The notes under the pieces: generated by a model
Database searches by the model: none
What the model was told of the DNA's origin: nothing
Seen by the model: only the letters and a program-made list of their open reading frames with translations
From: a virus
Taxonomy: Duplodnaviria; Caudoviricetes
Virus record (IMG/VR): IMGVR_UViG_3300026198_000001
Coordinates: 7,031-71,030 of that record
Strand: one strand, 5' to 3'
Length of the DNA stretch: 64,000 bases
Program-made: the position numbers and the translations under genes
In this document: positions 4,797-13,909 of the stretch, piece after piece
Position numbering within the stretch: position 1 is the first letter of the stretch
Layout: every line of letters begins with the position of its first letter

Positions 4797-5456
4797 TTAT
4801 TGAAGCCCTGCCAGCCTACGCTGTCTTTGCAGGTCTTCATCGAGGGCACTTTCGTCCTCTTGTGTAACTTTACCACTTCCGGCTGGGACTTTTACATCTT
4901 TGGTCAATGCTTCGATGAAGACAGATTCAGTCTTGAACTGCTCCTCTAACTCTTCAACGGTTTTGCATCCAGCAAGTCTGTCTTTCAGAACATCTCTGAA
5001 GCGATGACCTTCTACCATTTCTTCAAGCTTTGCACTGACCTGCTTGGCAGTTTCAGCTTCTTGAATGGCTTTTTCCTGCTGGGCTTTGGCTTCTTCGAGA
5101 ACCTTGATAGCGTCATTGGCTTTAGCAAGGTCAGCTTTCAAAGACTCGTTGGCTTGGCGCACTTCTGCATCCAGTTCTTCAGTGGTCTTTGCTTCGGGAA
5201 TGTACGGTTTCATTGCCTCTACAATCGCCGCAATAGTGCTCTTCAGCAAAGCCACTTCTTCGGATTCCATGACCTGCTTAGTTGCTTCGGTCATATATTC
5301 CTCTTTCTTTGCTTCAACCGCATCTGCTACTTTCTGGGCGAAGTCTTTCTCAAGGTCCTTTTTCACCTGTCCAACAGCTATTACGGTTGCCTCATCCATA
5401 AGCTGTTGAAACAACTCAGGACTCTGGGCTTTCAGTTCTTCCAGATTCTTGAACAT
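4797..5456 (-). CDS. Putative nested scaffolding protein (internal in-frame start, 219 aa)
   Basis: AAGGAGG (5470-5464), then 7 nt, then an in-frame ATG at 5456 at the protease/scaffold boundary. Confidence 0.65.
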   Translation of the reverse strand: MFKNLEELKAQSPELFQQLMDEATVIAVGQVKKDLEKDFAQKVADAVEAKKEEYMTEATKQVMESEEVALLKSTIAAIVEAMKPYIPEAKTTEELDAEVRQANESLKADLAKANDAIKVLEEAKAQQEKAIQEAETAKQVSAKLEEMVEGHRFRDVLKDRLAGCKTVEELEEQFKTESVFIEALTKDVKVPAGSGKVTQEDESALDEDLQRQRRLAGLQ

Positions 5457-6026
5457 GCTTTTTCCTCCTTCTTTAGATTCAAAGTTCGCAACCTTCCCAT
5501 ACTCGTTCGACTGCTCGAGAACACAGTCAATACCCTTGAGTTCATAGTCAGGCTGAACTTCCCATATGGTTCCGTCAGGCTCGTCTATGGGACGAACTGA
5601 ACCAAAACCCCTTGTCGATATACCTATACCTACCCCAGCGCGGAGCAACATTTCAAGGTGCTTGCCATCATCAGTAGCAAGAACATCCCCCTCAAATAGC
5701 ATGTTGTCCCCTTCCATCCACAACTTGGTGAACTTTACTGCGGTTCGGCTAAGAGACCCACTGTAATCAGGATGGTCTACCTCGCCCAGAAGCTTTCCTC
5801 TGCGTATCAGGTCTTGTGCAGATTCTGCCGCTTTATTCAAGACTGAAGTCGGATACAATCGCTTGTTCCCATTGACCACCCCACCCTTACTTGCAGTTCC
5901 TTTAATGGTCACAAGCTTATACGGATTAACTACGCCTTTCCCACTACCTGTGTCCTCTTTCAAAATCTCGATGTTCTCGAACAACGGCTGTTCAATTAGT
6001 TCGTTATCCCTTATCTTCTTTGTCAT
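4797..6026 (-). CDS. Prohead protease (T4 gp21-like) fused to a coiled-coil scaffolding domain
   Basis: NGNKRLYP, LLGEVDHP, GVGIGISTRGFGS motifs; acidic, Ala/Glu/Lys-rich coiled-coil C-terminal half. Confidence 0.88.
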   Translation of the reverse strand: MTKKIRDNELIEQPLFENIEILKEDTGSGKGVVNPYKLVTIKGTASKGGVVNGNKRLYPTSVLNKAAESAQDLIRRGKLLGEVDHPDYSGSLSRTAVKFTKLWMEGDNMLFEGDVLATDDGKHLEMLLRAGVGIGISTRGFGSVRPIDEPDGTIWEVQPDYELKGIDCVLEQSNEYGKVANFESKEGGKSMFKNLEELKAQSPELFQQLMDEATVIAVGQVKKDLEKDFAQKVADAVEAKKEEYMTEATKQVMESEEVALLKSTIAAIVEAMKPYIPEAKTTEELDAEVRQANESLKADLAKANDAIKVLEEAKAQQEKAIQEAETAKQVSAKLEEMVEGHRFRDVLKDRLAGCKTVEELEEQFKTESVFIEALTKDVKVPAGSGKVTQEDESALDEDLQRQRRLAGLQ

Positions 6027-6205: not shown

Positions 6206-7354
6206 CTACTCAACCTCTTTGCGTTTATCCAAAACTACCGTACCTATTGCATGCCATCTATAAACGTCTCGGCTGAATGGGTCCAGCCACTCTGGTAACT
6301 GCATACTTGCCTGTTCAAATTTGCTCAGTGCTATTCTTTCTTCACGGATGCGATATGCTGTTGGCTCTTGCTCAGAAAGCACCCGCAAAGTTGCTAAGGC
6401 TGACATCATGTCATCTAGCAGATTCCAGTTCAGGGTCCGTACAGATTCAAAGTCGTCTACCCCTACATCCCAACTTATTGCTTTGTTGACTTCACCCTTT
6501 GCCAGTGCTCTAGCCACAACTAACGGTACAACCTGAACTGCCAAGTCAACACTGTCTCTTTTCTCATACCGAATACGTAGACTGCACCCGCAGTGGCTGA
6601 GGCACATAGTTCCTCCTGCTCTTGGCGTAGTCGGTAACGTCTCTGGCGTGTACGGACTGTTCATGGCTAAGTCTATGCAATCACCACAGTTCTCTGCTGA
6701 TGACAATTCCCAGTAAATCAGTGTACCTTCATTCGGGTAGGCATCAACTCTTCCTGCATCAAACATAGAGTCTACGCTGTCAATGTACATACCAGCCCTT
6801 GCTGAATATGCCATGCTTCCTCGCTTAGCAACAATGTCATCGGCAAACTTGTCTAAGAACTTATACTCAGCACTCCTTGCCCGGGCTAACCATGCTAGGT
6901 CTTCTTTCGGTATTGCCACTGCTGACAACCCCGATGCATCTGTACCTAAACGGTATGCTTTTTCATATCCAGCTTTAAACAATGTACGTGACTTCTTCAT
7001 AAACTGAGCCTTGGTCAATTTTCTGCCCTCAAGCTGGGAAACAAGGTCTTTAAACTCGCTATCCATCTTGGCTTTATACGTAGCCCATGCCTTCTTTGCT
7101 TTATCATAAGCTGGCTTATCTGCCCCGGGCTTCAGTGCCTTCGTGTAAATTGCAAGTAGGTTCTTCTCATCTGAGTTCTTCCTTCTACTTCCTATACTCT
7201 TGGCATTGGGTCTCTTCGTGTTGACTGGGTCAAATCTCTTCGGATTGTCAAGAGCTTTCTTTACATAGTCAGGGTCTAGCGTATGTACTTTTGCTTCGTC
7301 AACAGACTCTAGCATTGCTATCTCATACCATGTTGCTCCTACTTTCATGTACAT
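6206..7354 (-). CDS. Head morphogenesis protein (MuF/SPP1 gp7-like)
   Basis: Follows the portal gene; Cys motif CGDC...TPRAGGTMCLSHCGC of MuF-type domains. Confidence 0.7.
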   Translation of the reverse strand: MYMKVGATWYEIAMLESVDEAKVHTLDPDYVKKALDNPKRFDPVNTKRPNAKSIGSRRKNSDEKNLLAIYTKALKPGADKPAYDKAKKAWATYKAKMDSEFKDLVSQLEGRKLTKAQFMKKSRTLFKAGYEKAYRLGTDASGLSAVAIPKEDLAWLARARSAEYKFLDKFADDIVAKRGSMAYSARAGMYIDSVDSMFDAGRVDAYPNEGTLIYWELSSAENCGDCIDLAMNSPYTPETLPTTPRAGGTMCLSHCGCSLRIRYEKRDSVDLAVQVVPLVVARALAKGEVNKAISWDVGVDDFESVRTLNWNLLDDMMSALATLRVLSEQEPTAYRIREERIALSKFEQASMQLPEWLDPFSRDVYRWHAIGTVVLDKRKEVE

Positions 7355-7357
7355 AAG

Positions 7358-9094
7358 CTATGCCCTCTTACGCCAAGGTCTTGTACTAACAGGCTTGCGT
7401 GTCAGTTTCCTACCAGTGGCTTCTTCAAACTCCCAATCCAGTAGCTCATACAGAGAGTCAAGCTGAGTCTCAAGGCTGTGCTTCATAAGCCGTATCTCTC
7501 TTGCAGATAACTTATGTTCTGATACCCCTGCACCTGCTACATCTTTAACAGGTACATCTTTGACTGGGTCAGTAGCTTTCTTAATTGCCTTCTTCCCAGA
7601 TGCCTCATCATCAGGTTCAGGTGCTGGATTCGCTACTATAACTTGAGGCTTGAGGGCATTGGCATAAGCAATATCCCTCTGTGCCCTGACATTGTCCAGA
7701 CTATCATCATTTTCAAGGCTGGTCTTTATCTCTGCAATATCCTCATCTGTCAAGTCAAGCATATTGCGATACACCCATTCAGTGCTTACCCCCAGCTCGT
7801 TCCTGTACTTCTTGGCGATTTCAGTCTTAACTGCTTCCATTTGCCATTCTCGCAACTCGTCTATGGCTGACATGATGGGCAGTCTAACTGTATACTCGTG
7901 GACAACTGGGTCAATACCTCTCGTAACTAAGACAAAATCAAAGAGCTTCCGTAATCCTGCTATCAATGCTTGCTGTACCCGTCTTTCTGTTTTTGCAAAC
8001 TGTACGTCAAGTTCAGTAATAACAGCTCTGGCATGGGTCTCACCTTCAAAGCCCATCCATGCTTTGGGTACTTTAAGTCCTGCAAACAGTTTCTTACTGA
8101 AATACTCAACATCGGCAAGTTGCCCAAGGTTCCCTGCCCCTTGCAGAATCTTTACGTCAGAACCAGAACCCTCTCGCTTAGCTAAGAATATGTCCTCCTC
8201 AGCAGACATCGGATTATAACGTAGGTCCATCTTACCCGTACTGGGGTCTATAGTCCGTTTCTTCTTCAGCTCTTTCTTGGTCTCCCTCAAATACTCCTGC
8301 GTAGGTTGTCCCGGCTCTATCCCAGTAACATCTATCATAAAGGCATAGCGTTGCTGTGCTCTAGTCAACCTTGCAATAACAACCCCGTCCTCCATCATGG
8401 ACAATTGCTTGAACACTTTCCTTATCGGGTACAGAACAGAACCATCTACACCATACTTGCTAGTCCTGTCTTTCTTGAGCAGGAAGTGCAGTATCTGCCA
8501 GTCCCTGAACTTGGCTTCTGTTTCCCCTGTGTCTGTGGTCTGCTCATACGGAAACTCTGGGTCAAGTCTACCCCACGTATCCTCAACTACCTTCATCCTA
8601 GCAGGGGCTAAGTGCTTAATACGGTGAACTTCAAGGTCATCATGCACTACTACCTCTTCGAAACAGTCACCATACTTAACCAACTCCCGTGCTATAGACC
8701 ACAGTTCTGAATCCAACTGGAGTCTCCTCTTTACTTCACCCAATACTTCAATCACAGTCTCAGACTCAGAAACGATTTCAATGGATTCGTTCTCTTCACG
8801 GTCACCACTGGTAGCATTGTCAGCATAAATGTCCAAAGCAGAAGCTATTTCAACTGCTTCTGTATCCATGCGTTCGTATTCTTTATACTTGTTCTTTCTC
8901 TTAGTCTCTAGCGTGGTTTCGTCTGCGTACCAGTCATAGGCCCCACCTCTGCTGGTATGCACCGAATCGCCAAACTCACGGCGTGTCTCAATAGCAGAGT
9001 CTACTTCAGGCGGGGCTTCATAAGCAGGATTGCGCCTAAACATGTCAGTCAATCTTTGCACTATATCTTCAACCAAAGGTACTTTCATAGCCAC
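7358..9094 (-). CDS. Portal protein, T4 gp20-like
   Basis: EIASALDIYADNAT, RELVKYGDCF, MMEDGVVIARLTRA, EEDIFL, DVEYFSKKLFAGLKVPK. Confidence 0.9.
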   Translation of the reverse strand: MAMKVPLVEDIVQRLTDMFRRNPAYEAPPEVDSAIETRREFGDSVHTSRGGAYDWYADETTLETKRKNKYKEYERMDTEAVEIASALDIYADNATSGDREENESIEIVSESETVIEVLGEVKRRLQLDSELWSIARELVKYGDCFEEVVVHDDLEVHRIKHLAPARMKVVEDTWGRLDPEFPYEQTTDTGETEAKFRDWQILHFLLKKDRTSKYGVDGSVLYPIRKVFKQLSMMEDGVVIARLTRAQQRYAFMIDVTGIEPGQPTQEYLRETKKELKKKRTIDPSTGKMDLRYNPMSAEEDIFLAKREGSGSDVKILQGAGNLGQLADVEYFSKKLFAGLKVPKAWMGFEGETHARAVITELDVQFAKTERRVQQALIAGLRKLFDFVLVTRGIDPVVHEYTVRLPIMSAIDELREWQMEAVKTEIAKKYRNELGVSTEWVYRNMLDLTDEDIAEIKTSLENDDSLDNVRAQRDIAYANALKPQVIVANPAPEPDDEASGKKAIKKATDPVKDVPVKDVAGAGVSEHKLSAREIRLMKHSLETQLDSLYELLDWEFEEATGRKLTRKPVSTRPWRKRA

Positions 9095-9144: not shown

Positions 9145-11088
9145 CTACATCACAACTTCTGGTACTCTTACGTTATTACTCGTGCTTGCTGTGCCTGCCA
9201 TTTCACCAAAAGACGGAGGCGGCGTGGGTTCTTTAACTCCCTCAGATTCACAAGCATAACATACTCCAGCTACTGCATCAGCTACGTCCTTGGAGCCGTT
9301 GGCAGGATGGTCTACCTTATTCTTTTTCTCGTTTCTCTCAAGACGAATGGTCTCCTCGAACAGTGGGTCATAGTGATACGTAATCAACCTGTCTTCATAC
9401 AAAGCATTCTTGTACGCTTCATATACAGCTGGATTCGTGTCGGCTGAAACTGTACCTGAGTCTATACCCGCCTGCTTAAATTGTTGCTGACTGTCTTTAG
9501 ACTGGAACGAGTCGTAAGTCACTCGCCGTATCGGATAACCATAGGAACGCAATTCATAGACAAGACTACGCACATCGGCAAACTGTATCTCCCCACCTTT
9601 TGGAGGCTTGATGCGGAGCATAAATTCAATTACAATAATCGGTGCTTTCATCGTGTATTCTATACCTTCTTCATTCCTGCGGGTTACTGCCTTGTATCCC
9701 TGCACATAGCCCATTGCAAAGCCAGTACTATCACCAGAGTACGAAAGGTCGGCATGAACAAAACGTGGCTTGCTCTTCAAGAAGCTAAGCTCCCTCTCCA
9801 GTCTTTTCCTTTCTTCTCCTACTGCTGAATCTATCTGTTTCTTGAGTCGTGGTATCCGCAACTTATCCATCAAGAACACACCTTTATCCTGAAGCGTGCT
9901 CTCCTCCAGTGAAAACGGATGCTCAAGCCCTATCTCTGCTCCTTTACTCAGTGCCTCAACCACTTTACTTCTATAGCGTATGTACGGTCTGATGGTCAAG
10001 GTCGGTCTGCCAGCAAAGTCTCGTATCGCCGCATCAATGTCCCCTTCAAAGTCCTTCCTGAACTCCTCGGGTATCTCAAGCAATGGCAGGTTCTTCTCCT
10101 CTGCCTTAGCATATTCCTCTTCATTTTCTATGATGCGTGGTGCTTCTGTACCATCTCCTAACGAAATCCAAAACTTCTTCCCTGTCCACCTATCAGCAGG
10201 GAGCGTATCCCACTGAGCATATCTCCTCGTGAATATCGTTGGGTCATCTTCCGCATCCTTGAGCCGGCGTTCCGTATAATCCTCTGGGTATCGACTTGAC
10301 GAAATCTGGAGCAGTATCCCGGGCAATTTCCCTTTCTTCATAAACCTTGACTTCATACGCCTTATCAGTGACTTCTGTAGGCTATCCGCTTGGTCATACT
10401 TACCGTTGGTCGTAGTTCTGGCCTTACTGTTCTCTATCACGGACATGAAGTTCACTTCGTCCATGACTCCACCAAATACGTTGTAACCAATAACACCACT
10501 GTCTCCTGCTGTGGCTGGGAACAACCATACATTATTCGGGAACCTGAGTTCATTGTTCCAAGGACCATACGGGTACTTCTCGACAAAGTACGGACTGGCA
10601 TGAATCTTATTCTTTATGCCTTGGAACACAATCTTCTTGGCATTATCCCGTGTAACCCCAACATTGAGCAAAACAATGACAGACCCCTTCATCAAGCCAT
10701 AGACTTTCTGGGGGTCTCTCAAACAAGAAATCTCATACAACATCCGACAAGTCGCTATCTCAGCAAAGGTTGACTTACCCCAACCAATGGCTCCTGTCAA
10801 AACAGCCTCTACATAGTCACCGTCAAATAACTCTTCAAGGTCATCAAGCAAACGTGGGAACACTTGTCCTTCCAAGCCAAGGTACTGGGGACTTTCAATG
10901 AACTCCCTCGTCTTCACTGGAACATACTTATACGTATAGCCCATCAGATTTTGCAGAATCTCTACTTCATTACCTTCGTTGTCACGCAGAATCTGCATCA
11001 GCATTTCAATATCATTTCTCGTGAACCCCAACGTTAGCTCGTCAAGACTCTGGACTATACGTCTATCCTCCAGTGCCAATGAACTCAT
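9145..11088 (-). CDS. Terminase large subunit
   Basis: Walker A GAIGWGKST, Walker B GVMDEV, RNase H-like nuclease HADLS...HPANGSKDVADAVAG. Confidence 0.92.
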   Translation of the reverse strand: MSSLALEDRRIVQSLDELTLGFTRNDIEMLMQILRDNEGNEVEILQNLMGYTYKYVPVKTREFIESPQYLGLEGQVFPRLLDDLEELFDGDYVEAVLTGAIGWGKSTFAEIATCRMLYEISCLRDPQKVYGLMKGSVIVLLNVGVTRDNAKKIVFQGIKNKIHASPYFVEKYPYGPWNNELRFPNNVWLFPATAGDSGVIGYNVFGGVMDEVNFMSVIENSKARTTTNGKYDQADSLQKSLIRRMKSRFMKKGKLPGILLQISSSRYPEDYTERRLKDAEDDPTIFTRRYAQWDTLPADRWTGKKFWISLGDGTEAPRIIENEEEYAKAEEKNLPLLEIPEEFRKDFEGDIDAAIRDFAGRPTLTIRPYIRYRSKVVEALSKGAEIGLEHPFSLEESTLQDKGVFLMDKLRIPRLKKQIDSAVGEERKRLERELSFLKSKPRFVHADLSYSGDSTGFAMGYVQGYKAVTRRNEEGIEYTMKAPIIVIEFMLRIKPPKGGEIQFADVRSLVYELRSYGYPIRRVTYDSFQSKDSQQQFKQAGIDSGTVSADTNPAVYEAYKNALYEDRLITYHYDPLFEETIRLERNEKKNKVDHPANGSKDVADAVAGVCYACESEGVKEPTPPPSFGEMAGTASTSNNVRVPEVVM

Positions 11089-11091
11089 GTC

Positions 11092-11358
11092 CTATCCCTC
11101 CAACTTTAACGGCAATACTACTCTTAGCATATTCGAATCTTTGAAACTGGACAGTGGCAGAGCCTCTTCCATTGGCATATGCTCACCCGTTGCATTATCT
11201 GCCAGTACTACAAATGGCTGATACAAACGACTAAGGTCTATGCCAAGTGTACTCACCACAAAATCTGTGACCTTCTGTGGGTCTACACTATCCTCAACGT
11301 CTATTTCCATTCTGCCACCTAACGATACAATAACAGTTACTTTCTTCTCCTCAGCCAT
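11092..11358 (-). CDS. Small ubiquitin-like (beta-grasp) protein candidate, 88 aa, ends in Gly
   Basis: Start reassigned to the ATG at 11358 (AGGAG RBS); the sequence aligns by eye to the ubiquitin pattern (see findings). Confidence 0.55.
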   Translation of the reverse strand: MAEEKKVTVIVSLGGRMEIDVEDSVDPQKVTDFVVSTLGIDLSRLYQPFVVLADNATGEHMPMEEALPLSSFKDSNMLRVVLPLKLEG

Positions 11359-11368
11359 ATACATTCTC

Positions 11369-11569
11369 CTATCCCTGCAAGAGTGCAAGCAGTTCTTTTT
11401 TACTCGCTCGTCTGTTGAACGTAATCCCGGCTTTCTCAAGCTCAACTGTTATCTCGGCCTTAGTCAGCTTTTCAGGTGGAATCGGAGCAACAGGCTTCTT
11501 CACTTTAGCCTTAGCCTTCGCATCTGCTTTACGAGCTTTCCTCCATGCCTTCAAAATCTCCTCATGCAT
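11369..11569 (-). CDS. Small basic protein with HeH/LEM-like (Rho N-terminal-like) motif
   Basis: LTKAEITVELEKAGITFNRRASKKELLALL; start at 11569 overlaps the upstream stop codon. Confidence 0.6.
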   Translation of the reverse strand: MHEEILKAWRKARKADAKAKAKVKKPVAPIPPEKLTKAEITVELEKAGITFNRRASKKELLALLQG

Positions 11570-12251
11570 TGACGTTCTCCTCCTTTTTCTTTTTCTTTGC
11601 AACTATATCCCGCATCGTTTTCCAATAGCTGGGATACCACTGCACCTTAACATAATCCTCCAGCTTAATCGGAGTGGCTTCACCATAAGCAAGGACCAAC
11701 TCTGGCTCTATCACCTCAACCATTTTCTCAAACCCTGCGATGAACAATTCCCTGACCTCCTTCGGTCTGTTTGCCCCTACAGTCGAGATGGCTACTATGC
11801 TTCCCTTCTCTATCCCAGCAAAGCAGAACTCATAACTCCTCTCGTCTGCCCAAGTTACAGATGGCAGTACTTCTATGCCATTACTCTGCCAATAGCAACC
11901 AATCCACCTACTACGATACGTATTCCAAACCTGTAACACTTTCGGGTACTCAGCATACAGACTAAAATCTGGTGTCAATGCCCTACCTGTCTTCTTGACT
12001 AAGGACAAAGTCTGCACTGGCCTAGTCCATACGTGTTCAAAGTGATAATCGTCAACGAAGAAATGTACAGCACCCTTCTTCATATCTACATCCCCACTCA
12101 CACGTTGCTTGACAGGCAATAACCACTCTGGAACAAAGTAGTCTTTTCGTAAAGTCGGGATACCATAATCATTGTCAATGCCAAACAGGTTGAACGTATT
12201 CAGTGCATCAAAATTCCCGGGCAACCTTTTCCAACTATTCACTGTTCTCAT
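11562..12251 (-). CDS. DUF4417-family protein
   Basis: HFFVDDYHFE, LTPDFSLY, WNTYRSRWIGCYWQSNGIEVLPSVTW, AISTVG motifs. Confidence 0.8.
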   Translation of the reverse strand: MRTVNSWKRLPGNFDALNTFNLFGIDNDYGIPTLRKDYFVPEWLLPVKQRVSGDVDMKKGAVHFFVDDYHFEHVWTRPVQTLSLVKKTGRALTPDFSLYAEYPKVLQVWNTYRSRWIGCYWQSNGIEVLPSVTWADERSYEFCFAGIEKGSIVAISTVGANRPKEVRELFIAGFEKMVEVIEPELVLAYGEATPIKLEDYVKVQWYPSYWKTMRDIVAKKKKKEENVNA

Positions 12252-12483
12252 CTATCTTTATCCCTGCCAATCTCTGTTGCTCTTTCTTGGCATTATCACT
12301 GAGTACCAGAAACGGACATGCCTTGCCATCAAAGAATACAGAATCAGGTATCCCATTCGGGTACTTTTCACAACTAGCCTTGTCAGTGACTTTCATCCCT
12401 TTCAAAGACTTCTCGTGCACCTTTACACATTCATAACACTTTGGCGGTTTTCTAGTTACCATAGTCCTGTCCTCCTTATGCAT
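12235..12483 (-). CDS. Small Cys-rich protein (CxxC...CEKYPNGIP...C)
   Basis: Overlaps both neighbours; C.x(Y/F)PxGIP motif. Confidence 0.6.
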   Translation of the reverse strand: MHKEDRTMVTRKPPKCYECVKVHEKSLKGMKVTDKASCEKYPNGIPDSVFFDGKACPFLVLSDNAKKEQQRLAGIKIDENSE

Positions 12484-13192
12484 AATTCTTGGTCAGTACT
12501 CCCTGTACAAACGCATCGAATGTACCTGCCTCAACCTTTCCACCTGTAGCTATCTTAGCAAAGGACTCAGCCCACGCTTCATGATGGTCTGTCTTTGCAT
12601 ACTGCGAACTAAGCTTCGTACTCTTGAACGCTTTTTTCATATCTGCCTCTTTCATCTTGCCTGTTGCTATCAGATGGTCTCCTACGGTGTGACCATACTC
12701 ATGCGAAATCAACCCACTTACTCCACCCGTTGACATCCATCCTGTCTGCTTGCACTGCGTATACTCCCTAGTCAACTTCTTCAGATTGTAATCACTGTCG
12801 ATATTCAGCTTCCCATCCCCAAACACAGCGTAAGCACCATCATAATCCTTACCCCAAGCTACAACCAGATTCTTAACCCCAAACTCTTTCAACCTGGTCT
12901 CCCCTTCTACTGGGTACTTATCCATAAGCCCGGACAATACATCTGCACCAGCTCGAGCAAGCATCTCCTGCTCAGCCTTCTTCATATTCCTCGAACTGGT
13001 GTACACAATCCTCACCCCGGGCAGTGCTTTCTCAATATCTTTTGCAGTCGGGTACTTTGCTTTCAGGTAGGCTTCAAGTTCCTTGTACTCAGCATCACTC
13101 AGCCCGTCATCTGTGGCACTTCCACCACCACCTAGTAACTGTGCCGCACGTGATGCTCTAGCATGACCTTTGCTTGCTCCTCTACCTCCCAT
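12476..13192 (-). CDS. Zincin-like metallopeptidase with an MGGRG N-terminus
   Basis: HEYGH zinc motif followed by SQYA...EAWAESF. Confidence 0.7.
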   Translation of the reverse strand: MGGRGASKGHARASRAAQLLGGGGSATDDGLSDAEYKELEAYLKAKYPTAKDIEKALPGVRIVYTSSRNMKKAEQEMLARAGADVLSGLMDKYPVEGETRLKEFGVKNLVVAWGKDYDGAYAVFGDGKLNIDSDYNLKKLTREYTQCKQTGWMSTGGVSGLISHEYGHTVGDHLIATGKMKEADMKKAFKSTKLSSQYAKTDHHEAWAESFAKIATGGKVEAGTFDAFVQGVLTKNYA

Positions 13193-13279: not shown

Positions 13280-13909
13280 CTATTCATCGGTATCCTCTGT
13301 ATCCCCCGCCGGTTCTACAATTACCTTAGACATCGCCTGAAGCATTTTTCCAGCCAGTAAGCCAAGTCTTGCTTTCGTACCTTCATCGGTAGTCTCATCC
13401 ATCAGTGTCGAACTAAAGTTCCCTGACACACTAAGCTGGTCAGGTACTTTACTCATAATCCCCAGCTCCATCTTCTTCTGCACCATGCTATTCAGCAAGT
13501 CCATAGCTATACGTATCTCATGCCCAGTACTGCCGAACAGCTTGTTAATCTTAGTCTCAGTCTCAGCATCAATACTGATACGCCGTAACTGGAACAGGTA
13601 CAGCTTTTCAAGTTCTTCTATTTCATTGATTCCTCGGTGCATCTTTTCAATAGCTCTTTGCAGATAGACAGGTGGGTCTCTCAACAGTTCAGCAGGTGGC
13701 AGGGAGCCTTTGTACCTGAACAGTTTCCTTACTAGACTATCACGCTTAATGGCGGTCTGTTGGAGCATATCTTCTTGTAACCATCTGGCTATCTCTTCAA
13801 TAGCTATCCCAGCCTTGACCTTCTTGTGGAACTCTTCATAACAGTGCATATCTTTCAAATCCTTGAAGGCATGGCTTTTCTTTGCCTTCTTCTGTGCCAT
13901 ACGTATCAC
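13280..13909 (-). CDS. Putative terminase small subunit
   Basis: 209 aa, all-helical with an HTH-like N-terminus, first gene of the packaging block. Confidence 0.5.
   Translation of the reverse strand: MIRMAQKKAKKSHAFKDLKDMHCYEEFHKKVKAGIAIEEIARWLQEDMLQQTAIKRDSLVRKLFRYKGSLPPAELLRDPPVYLQRAIEKMHRGINEIEELEKLYLFQLRRISIDAETETKINKLFGSTGHEIRIAMDLLNSMVQKKMELGIMSKVPDQLSVSGNFSSTLMDETTDEGTKARLGLLAGKMLQAMSKVIVEPAGDTEDTDE

Follow-up and report, generated by a model that had tools for sequence, protein, structure and literature searches.

What is a small ubiquitin-like protein doing between the packaging genes of a tailed phage? The question is raised by an 88-residue protein, hereafter Ubl, encoded in the 64 kb stretch of DNA that we analysed (the window), which covers most of a complete virus record (71,030 bp, direct terminal repeats) and holds almost all of its long ORFs on the minus strand. 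The Ubl gene lies on that strand at 11092..11358 (stop included), running from the ATG at 11358 to the TAG at 11094-11092, and its delineation is based on the ORF and its translation, the homologs and an AlphaFold2 model. Its Shine-Dalgarno sequence, GGAGA (11365..11369, minus strand; read directly in the sequence), is spaced 6 nt from the ATG and overlaps the stop codon of a small upstream ORF (11369..11569, minus strand), which codes for 66 residues from the ATG at 11569 or for 77 residues from a TTG at 11602. The C-terminal part of this small ORF matches phrog_1539 ('Arc-like repressor', E 6e-9); it has no BLAST match in the related loci and is missing in the two loci where Ubl is contiguous with the gene for the conserved 209-residue protein described below (L026 and L030).

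Immediately downstream, the large terminase gene (TerL; 647 residues, 9145..11088, minus strand; phrog_2 terminase large subunit, E 1.9e-9) starts with an ATG at 11088, leaving a gap of 3 nt after the Ubl stop. Its Shine-Dalgarno sequence, GGAGGGA (11095..11101, minus strand), is embedded in the last Ubl codons, TTG GAG GGA (Leu-Glu-Gly), which implies that the two genes are translationally coupled. It shares 39% identity with the TerL proteins annotated in Vibrio phage LV6 and in SIO-2-like phages, and PF27249 is found on identical copies of it. The next gene codes for a T4-type portal (7358..9094, minus strand; PF07230 Portal_T4, E 4e-63). On the other side of Ubl lies the gene for a conserved helical protein of 209 residues, p209 (13280..13909, minus strand), whose start is ambiguous (GTG at 13909, or possibly ATG at 13900) and which, by position and architecture, is the probable small terminase (TerS). 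It is separated from Ubl by a lineage-specific insert (11562..13192, minus strand) with a DUF4417 gene (E 4.6e-61), an 82-residue Cys-rich ORF and a 238-residue protein; only DUF4417 recurs elsewhere, in L021/L022. No promoter- or terminator-like signal rises above background between p209 and TerL. The identical Ubl protein is present on at least 24 metagenomic contigs, always in the same context.

The AlphaFold2 model of Ubl, computed on the family alignment, is a confident one (pLDDT 89.2, pTM 0.73). Its fold matches point to the beta-grasp, which we define as a mixed beta-sheet grasping a single helix with the topology beta-beta-alpha-beta-beta-beta. A Foldseek search of the PDB with this model returned ubiquitin or Ubl domains in nearly all the top positions, the best E-value being 0.08 and none being at or below 0.001, while a search of the viral structures in BFVD gave no match at E <= 0.001. 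We then considered the VIA structural searches, one all-against-all and one in which the Foldseek list was re-examined: among the best 50 matches of each, 100 of 100 are beta-grasp or Ubl domains (Z 4.8-6.2), including RA, FERM-F1, USP UBL, PB1, SUMO, ISG15 and ubiquitin, with 62-79 of the 88 residues aligned. Against ubiquitin itself, the model gives a Z of 5.0 with an rmsd of 2.8 A over 64-66 residues at 20-23% identity. The beta-grasp assignment is made because these matches are unanimous, the Z values on their own being middling by the calibration of the tool. Clusters labelled 'ubiquitin-like domain', YukD/EsaB and DUF2604 are likewise among the ESM Atlas neighbours of Ubl. A beta-grasp fold had been anticipated in the first-pass annotation of this DNA, and both the model and its top fold matches agree with that expectation.

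At the sequence level, a profile built from 30 Ubl homologs and run against all PDB sequences matched only ubiquitin, polyubiquitin and engineered ubiquitin variants, plus one entry for protein G B1. Its positions 8-44 align with ubiquitin 5-42 (DVEDSVD against EVEPSDT), which is exactly the register that had been proposed earlier from the single protein. The score against a single ubiquitin domain is about 12 bits (E ~1.3), so that by itself the sequence match to ubiquitin is suggestive rather than significant; the low E-value for polyubiquitin (1e-15) arises because the scores of the repeats are summed. As modelled, Ubl is a protein with a ubiquitin-like beta-grasp fold.

Exhaustive phmmer searches recovered nine small homologs, which a profile search expanded to about 30; together with copies read directly from the loci, the family comprises 35 members, all metagenomic, which have 63-99 residues and are 20-37% identical to the query. 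The family is matched by none of the models in Pfam, PHROGs and NCBIfam (the Pfam scan covered 30 members); tblastn against 50,697 phage records and megablast of the Ubl region likewise gave no match. Fused or longer versions of the protein were looked for and none turned up, which is weak evidence. One candidate of the representative search, a repeat protein of 1063 residues (P0007), was discarded because its match was spurious and due to low complexity. Across the 35 homologs F49, R79, P83 and L84 are invariant, and V11, G15, T26, V50, V51 and V81 nearly so; the conserved positions make up two motifs, PFVV and LRVVLPLK, situated on two strands. Apart from one truncated sequence, the members are acidic, with a pI of 4.3-6.

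One member is encoded in a bacterial chromosome: a Bacillota MAG (GCA_040756655.1; locus L009, 6001-6273) has an intact 90-residue copy flanked by a two-component system on one side and asd/whiA on the other, with neither phage genes nor a terminase in its vicinity, and the same context is seen in L010 and L011. This copy is the only one among 210 genomes of its class, indicating that Ubl is not a widespread cellular family; the orphan could be a domesticated or relic phage gene.

The ubiquitin-like fold brings up the matter of conjugation. The window protein does have the free C-terminal Gly that was originally pointed out, as part of a Leu-Glu-Gly rather than a Gly-Gly ending. When its conservation was checked across the family, it did not hold up: a terminal Gly is found in 3 of the 35 homologs and a Gly-Gly in none, whereas 21 end in Glu or Asp (the last residue is E in 17, S in 7, D in 4, G in 3, A in 2 and L and K in one each), and the tails beyond the conserved Pro-Leu of the LRVVLPL strand are anywhere between 1 and 19 residues long. 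The end of the Ubl reading frame extends into the ribosome-binding site of the gene that follows it in the window, L006, L014 and L017 (GGAGGGA, AAGGA, AAAGGG and GAGTAGGAG), and the frequent Lys-Glu, Lys-Asp and Glu-Gly endings arise because of this overlap. Hence, the caveat raised earlier, that the Gly might be incidental as its GAG GGA codons double as the TerL Shine-Dalgarno, was well placed: these codons lie inside GGAGGGA and the residue is not conserved.

The potential partners of a conjugated Ubl were also sought. The first-pass annotation had seen no E1, E2 or JAB gene in the window, and this extends to the complete 71,030-bp phage genome: a six-frame HMM search at E <= 1 with models for E1, E2 and peptidase components (PF00899, PF14464, PF01398, PF00179, PF14457 and PF20137) and for Multi_ubiq detected no ThiF, Prok-JAB, JAB, UQ_con, Prok-E2_A, DUF6527 or Multi_ubiq domain. 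The whole phage genome, which was the scope of the search, has no E1, E2, JAB or Bub gene, although the host may encode such an enzyme. Judged by its sequence and by the gene complement of the phage, Ubl is not a conjugated modifier, and the terminal Gly of the window copy is incidental.

We next examined the gene order in loci fetched via Ubl and, independently, via TerL, by scanning them with profiles of Ubl, TerL and p209. Wherever the TerL is at least 52% identical to that of the window and the upstream DNA is readable, the order p209, Ubl, TerL is found in every sampled locus; about 13 distinct lineages are represented, among them every one that was reached solely via TerL. In L026 and L030 the three genes directly follow one another, whereas in the other loci unrelated genes (DUF4417, HNH, PAPS reductase, the 238-residue protein and small ORFs) occur on either side of Ubl. 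The TerS-TerL junction is an insertion hot spot, as seen at 11562-13192 of the window and in L006, L012, L014, L017 and L021/L022, with the non-Ubl inserts being sporadic among the loci of the clade. More distant TerL relatives (35-43% identity) often keep a p209 homolog; in these phages it abuts or overlaps TerL (L051, L052, L056, L058 and Agrobacterium phage JP1, where it is JP1_008), and Ubl is undetectable even at E <= 1. Arthrobacter phage Kitkat carries its p209 homolog as gene 1, upstream of TerL and at the end of the genome; the intervening genes 2 and 3 were considered as potential Ubl relatives and proved to be unrelated to the family. The p209 family is widely conserved and unannotated, being also gene 1 of Arthrobacter phage KellEzio, and matches phrog_35167, a family of unknown function.

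The AlphaFold2 model of p209 is of low confidence (pLDDT 63) and all-helical, with an N-terminal helical domain followed by long helices. Its Atlas neighbours include the Mu Gp27, Terminase_5 and DUF2280 clusters; its BFVD matches are uncharacterised proteins, its VIA matches are generic coiled coils only, and sequence searches gave neither a solved relative nor a direct family match. Because no family or structure match confirms it, the assignment of p209 as the probable small terminase rests on its position and predicted architecture. If p209 is indeed TerS, Ubl would have entered between TerS and TerL in this one clade and stayed there ever since.

The TerL genes of this clade are themselves subject to insertions. 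Intein-like in-frame inserts occur in the TerL of several relatives, around position 105 (L006, L026 and L032-L036), around 598 (L017) and at 206-212 (L028/L029); one of them interrupts the Walker A motif, with GWGK before it and STFAEI after it, and has His-Asn as its last residues, directly ahead of the Ser. The JGI annotation marks Intein_splicing and LAGLIDADG domains on some of the insert-bearing versions, and the window TerL has no insert. In L021 TerL is split into two frames (5348-5650 and 6516-8168) by about 860 nt, which may represent an intron or a homing-endonuclease insertion.

Comparison of the same phage pairs revealed that Ubl evolves faster than the genes around it: amino acid identities are 54-78% for TerL, 45-75% for p209 and 47-62% for the portal, as against 22-50% for Ubl, and its dN (0.42-0.95) is 2-4 times higher than that of TerL and p209 (0.16-0.46). 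Its dN/dS in close pairs is 0.12-0.62, which points to purifying selection weaker than that on the neighbouring genes. The identities of Ubl and TerL are weakly correlated (rho 0.29, p 0.09), and the window copy is especially divergent.

Taking these observations together, we favour the reading that Ubl is a non-conjugated ubiquitin-fold accessory of the packaging machinery, with both its binding partner and its role in packaging being inferred; we hold it tentatively, as somewhat short of an even bet. Under this proposal, the gene would have been inserted between p209 and TerL at the base of one clade of tailed phages with T4-type portals, and every sampled descendant would have kept it there, reading in the direction of the terminase genes and coupled in translation to the gene that follows. 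Within the packaging machinery, the protein would most likely act as an adaptor between proteins or as an assembly factor, with the PFVV and LRVVLPLK strands binding a conserved partner, such as TerL, the small terminase or the portal. We infer that these strands form an exposed binding face comparable to the Ile44 patch of ubiquitin. An adaptor fits best because of the universal retention at one position in the packaging operon, the coupling, and the conserved two-strand motif on an otherwise fast-changing scaffold. Against a role in packaging stands the fact that related phages package their DNA without Ubl; further, as the junction is an insertion hot spot, position is here weaker evidence of function than usual.

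The insertion-prone junction, the fast evolution and the cellular orphan copy together keep alive a role in host interaction, and rapid divergence with weak co-divergence with TerL is also typical of host-conflict proteins. Ubl could then be a late-made ubiquitin-fold mimic that, itself unconjugated, blocks a host factor, for instance the E1 or E2 of a Bil/Bub/CBASS-II-type defence targeting virion assembly. Such a mimic would account for the ubiquitin-like fold and sequence pattern, for a rate of evolution exceeding that of the neighbouring core genes, and for a small and acidic protein (pI 4.3-6 in nearly all members) at a junction that accepts accessory genes. While virions are being assembled, Bil attaches its Ubl to the tail proteins of phages (PMC11601603), which makes a blocker expressed late in infection conceivable. 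However, the family has no conserved C-terminal Gly or tail, which is the feature recognised by E1 enzymes; no link to any defence system was found; and, unlike typical anti-defence genes, Ubl occurs in all sampled clade members at a single position. The strict placement between the putative TerS and TerL fits a packaging-motor adaptor, the other suggestion of the first-pass annotation, better than a decoy for Bil or CBASS. We regard a host-interaction or anti-defence role as unlikely, and its more specific version, a mimic of ubiquitin that is produced along with the virion-assembly genes and jams Bil-, Bub- or type II CBASS-like E1/E2 enzymes while staying unconjugated, as quite improbable; if true, the latter would be the first phage inhibitor to act by imitating the Ubl itself. 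The first-pass proposal of a decoy or inhibitor of ubiquitin-like defence such as Bil or CBASS had been founded on the terminal Gly, and with that residue present in 3 of 35 homologs and no other link to defence, it has lost its footing. That Ubl is a genuine modifier, relying on an E1-like enzyme of the host for its activation and becoming linked to proteins of the phage or the host, would agree with its ubiquitin fold and with the Gly of the window copy at about the length of the ubiquitin tail; yet the Leu-Glu-Gly ending, the rarity of a terminal Gly, the highly variable tails, the lack of E1, E2 or JAB in the phage and the explanation of the terminal codons by the TerL ribosome-binding site leave it very improbable.

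It is also conceivable that Ubl is a passenger of the hot spot, persisting for a reason outside of packaging and defence, such as superinfection exclusion, some other late function or service as an upstream frame for translational coupling. The many unrelated genes that have landed at the same junction, the tight stop/start coupling with the downstream gene, the low sequence conservation and the existence of a cellular orphan are all in line with this. Nevertheless, the conserved fold, the invariant residues and the purifying selection argue for a constrained function; Ubl is retained in every sampled lineage while the other inserts come and go; and coupling to TerL cannot be its general role, because several phages have Ubl and TerL apart from each other. 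We therefore consider a mere passenger improbable. Some small terminases, such as T7 gp18, are shorter than 100 residues, and Ubl of the window phage is immediately upstream of TerL and translationally coupled to it, both of which would suit Ubl itself being the small terminase, i.e., the DNA-recognition subunit. Its acidic character and its beta-grasp model, with neither a helix-turn-helix nor a coiled-coil oligomerisation core, count against such an identity; p209, which is predicted to have such an architecture, is conserved upstream and abuts TerL in relatives without Ubl, and is the better candidate, making a TerS function for Ubl highly unlikely.

Several known systems provide a context for the packaging-accessory reading. 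With ubiquitin, BilA, BubA, ThiS and MoaD, Ubl shares the beta-grasp and a TLxGK-strand-helix segment ending in GI, in register with ubiquitin 5-42; additionally, its last strand, LRVVLPLK, parallels LHLVLRLR of ubiquitin. It differs from these proteins and from SAMP in that the family has no conserved terminal Gly or Gly-Gly and no match to Multi_ubiq, and that the genome is devoid of E1, E2, JAB and DUF6527. Another comparison is with YukD/EsaB (PF08817), which, like Ubl, is a beta-grasp protein that is small and stands alone, has neither a Gly-Gly tail nor E1/E2 partners, and is encoded inside the operon of a large ATP-driven translocation machine. A YukD-type cluster is an Atlas feature-space neighbour of Ubl at 0.90, while none of 30 Ubl members matches PF08817 at E <= 10. 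YukD, a Ubl that is not conjugated, holds the T7SSb translocase complex together as a structural assembly factor (PMC12637312). The machines differ, that of YukD/EsaB being the type VII secretion system with its FtsK-type ATPase EssC/YukB, in contrast to the terminase, portal and other phage genes that neighbour Ubl. YukD is the closest working analogy for Ubl as a putative packaging adaptor.

Among phage proteins, the tail assembly protein I (TAPI) of lambda and T1 has a Ubl domain encoded in the virion morphogenesis operon and is absent from the mature particle (PMC1779556). Its C-terminal Gly is conserved, and it possesses a second domain as well as a JAB/NlpC partner (gpK) and belongs to the tail module (Iyer, Burroughs and Aravind 2006, PMC1779556). 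Thus, Ubl resembles TAPI in being a phage-encoded Ubl domain in a virion morphogenesis operon and differs from it in being single-domain, in the lack of a JAB in the genome and in its location in the packaging module. A purely functional likeness may be drawn to lambda gpFI and herpesvirus pUL33, small terminase-associated proteins that assist the assembly or docking of the packaging motor and not its catalysis.

Tailed-phage terminases are usually described as two-subunit enzymes, and no description of a protein with a beta-grasp or ubiquitin-like fold in a terminase module was found in the searchable literature. Classic surveys place phage Ubls only in tail assembly, as TAPI (PMC1779556). 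What is new here is a non-conjugated Ubl in a new machine, the terminase module. A warning also follows from this family: where the last codons of a small beta-grasp protein double as the ribosome-binding site of the next gene, its free terminal Gly is no evidence of conjugation. Being fixed between the terminase genes of a whole clade, Ubl would represent either an undescribed third component of the packaging machinery, recruited much as YukD was to serve a secretion ATPase, or a novel way in which the ubiquitin fold is employed in the conflict between phages and their hosts.
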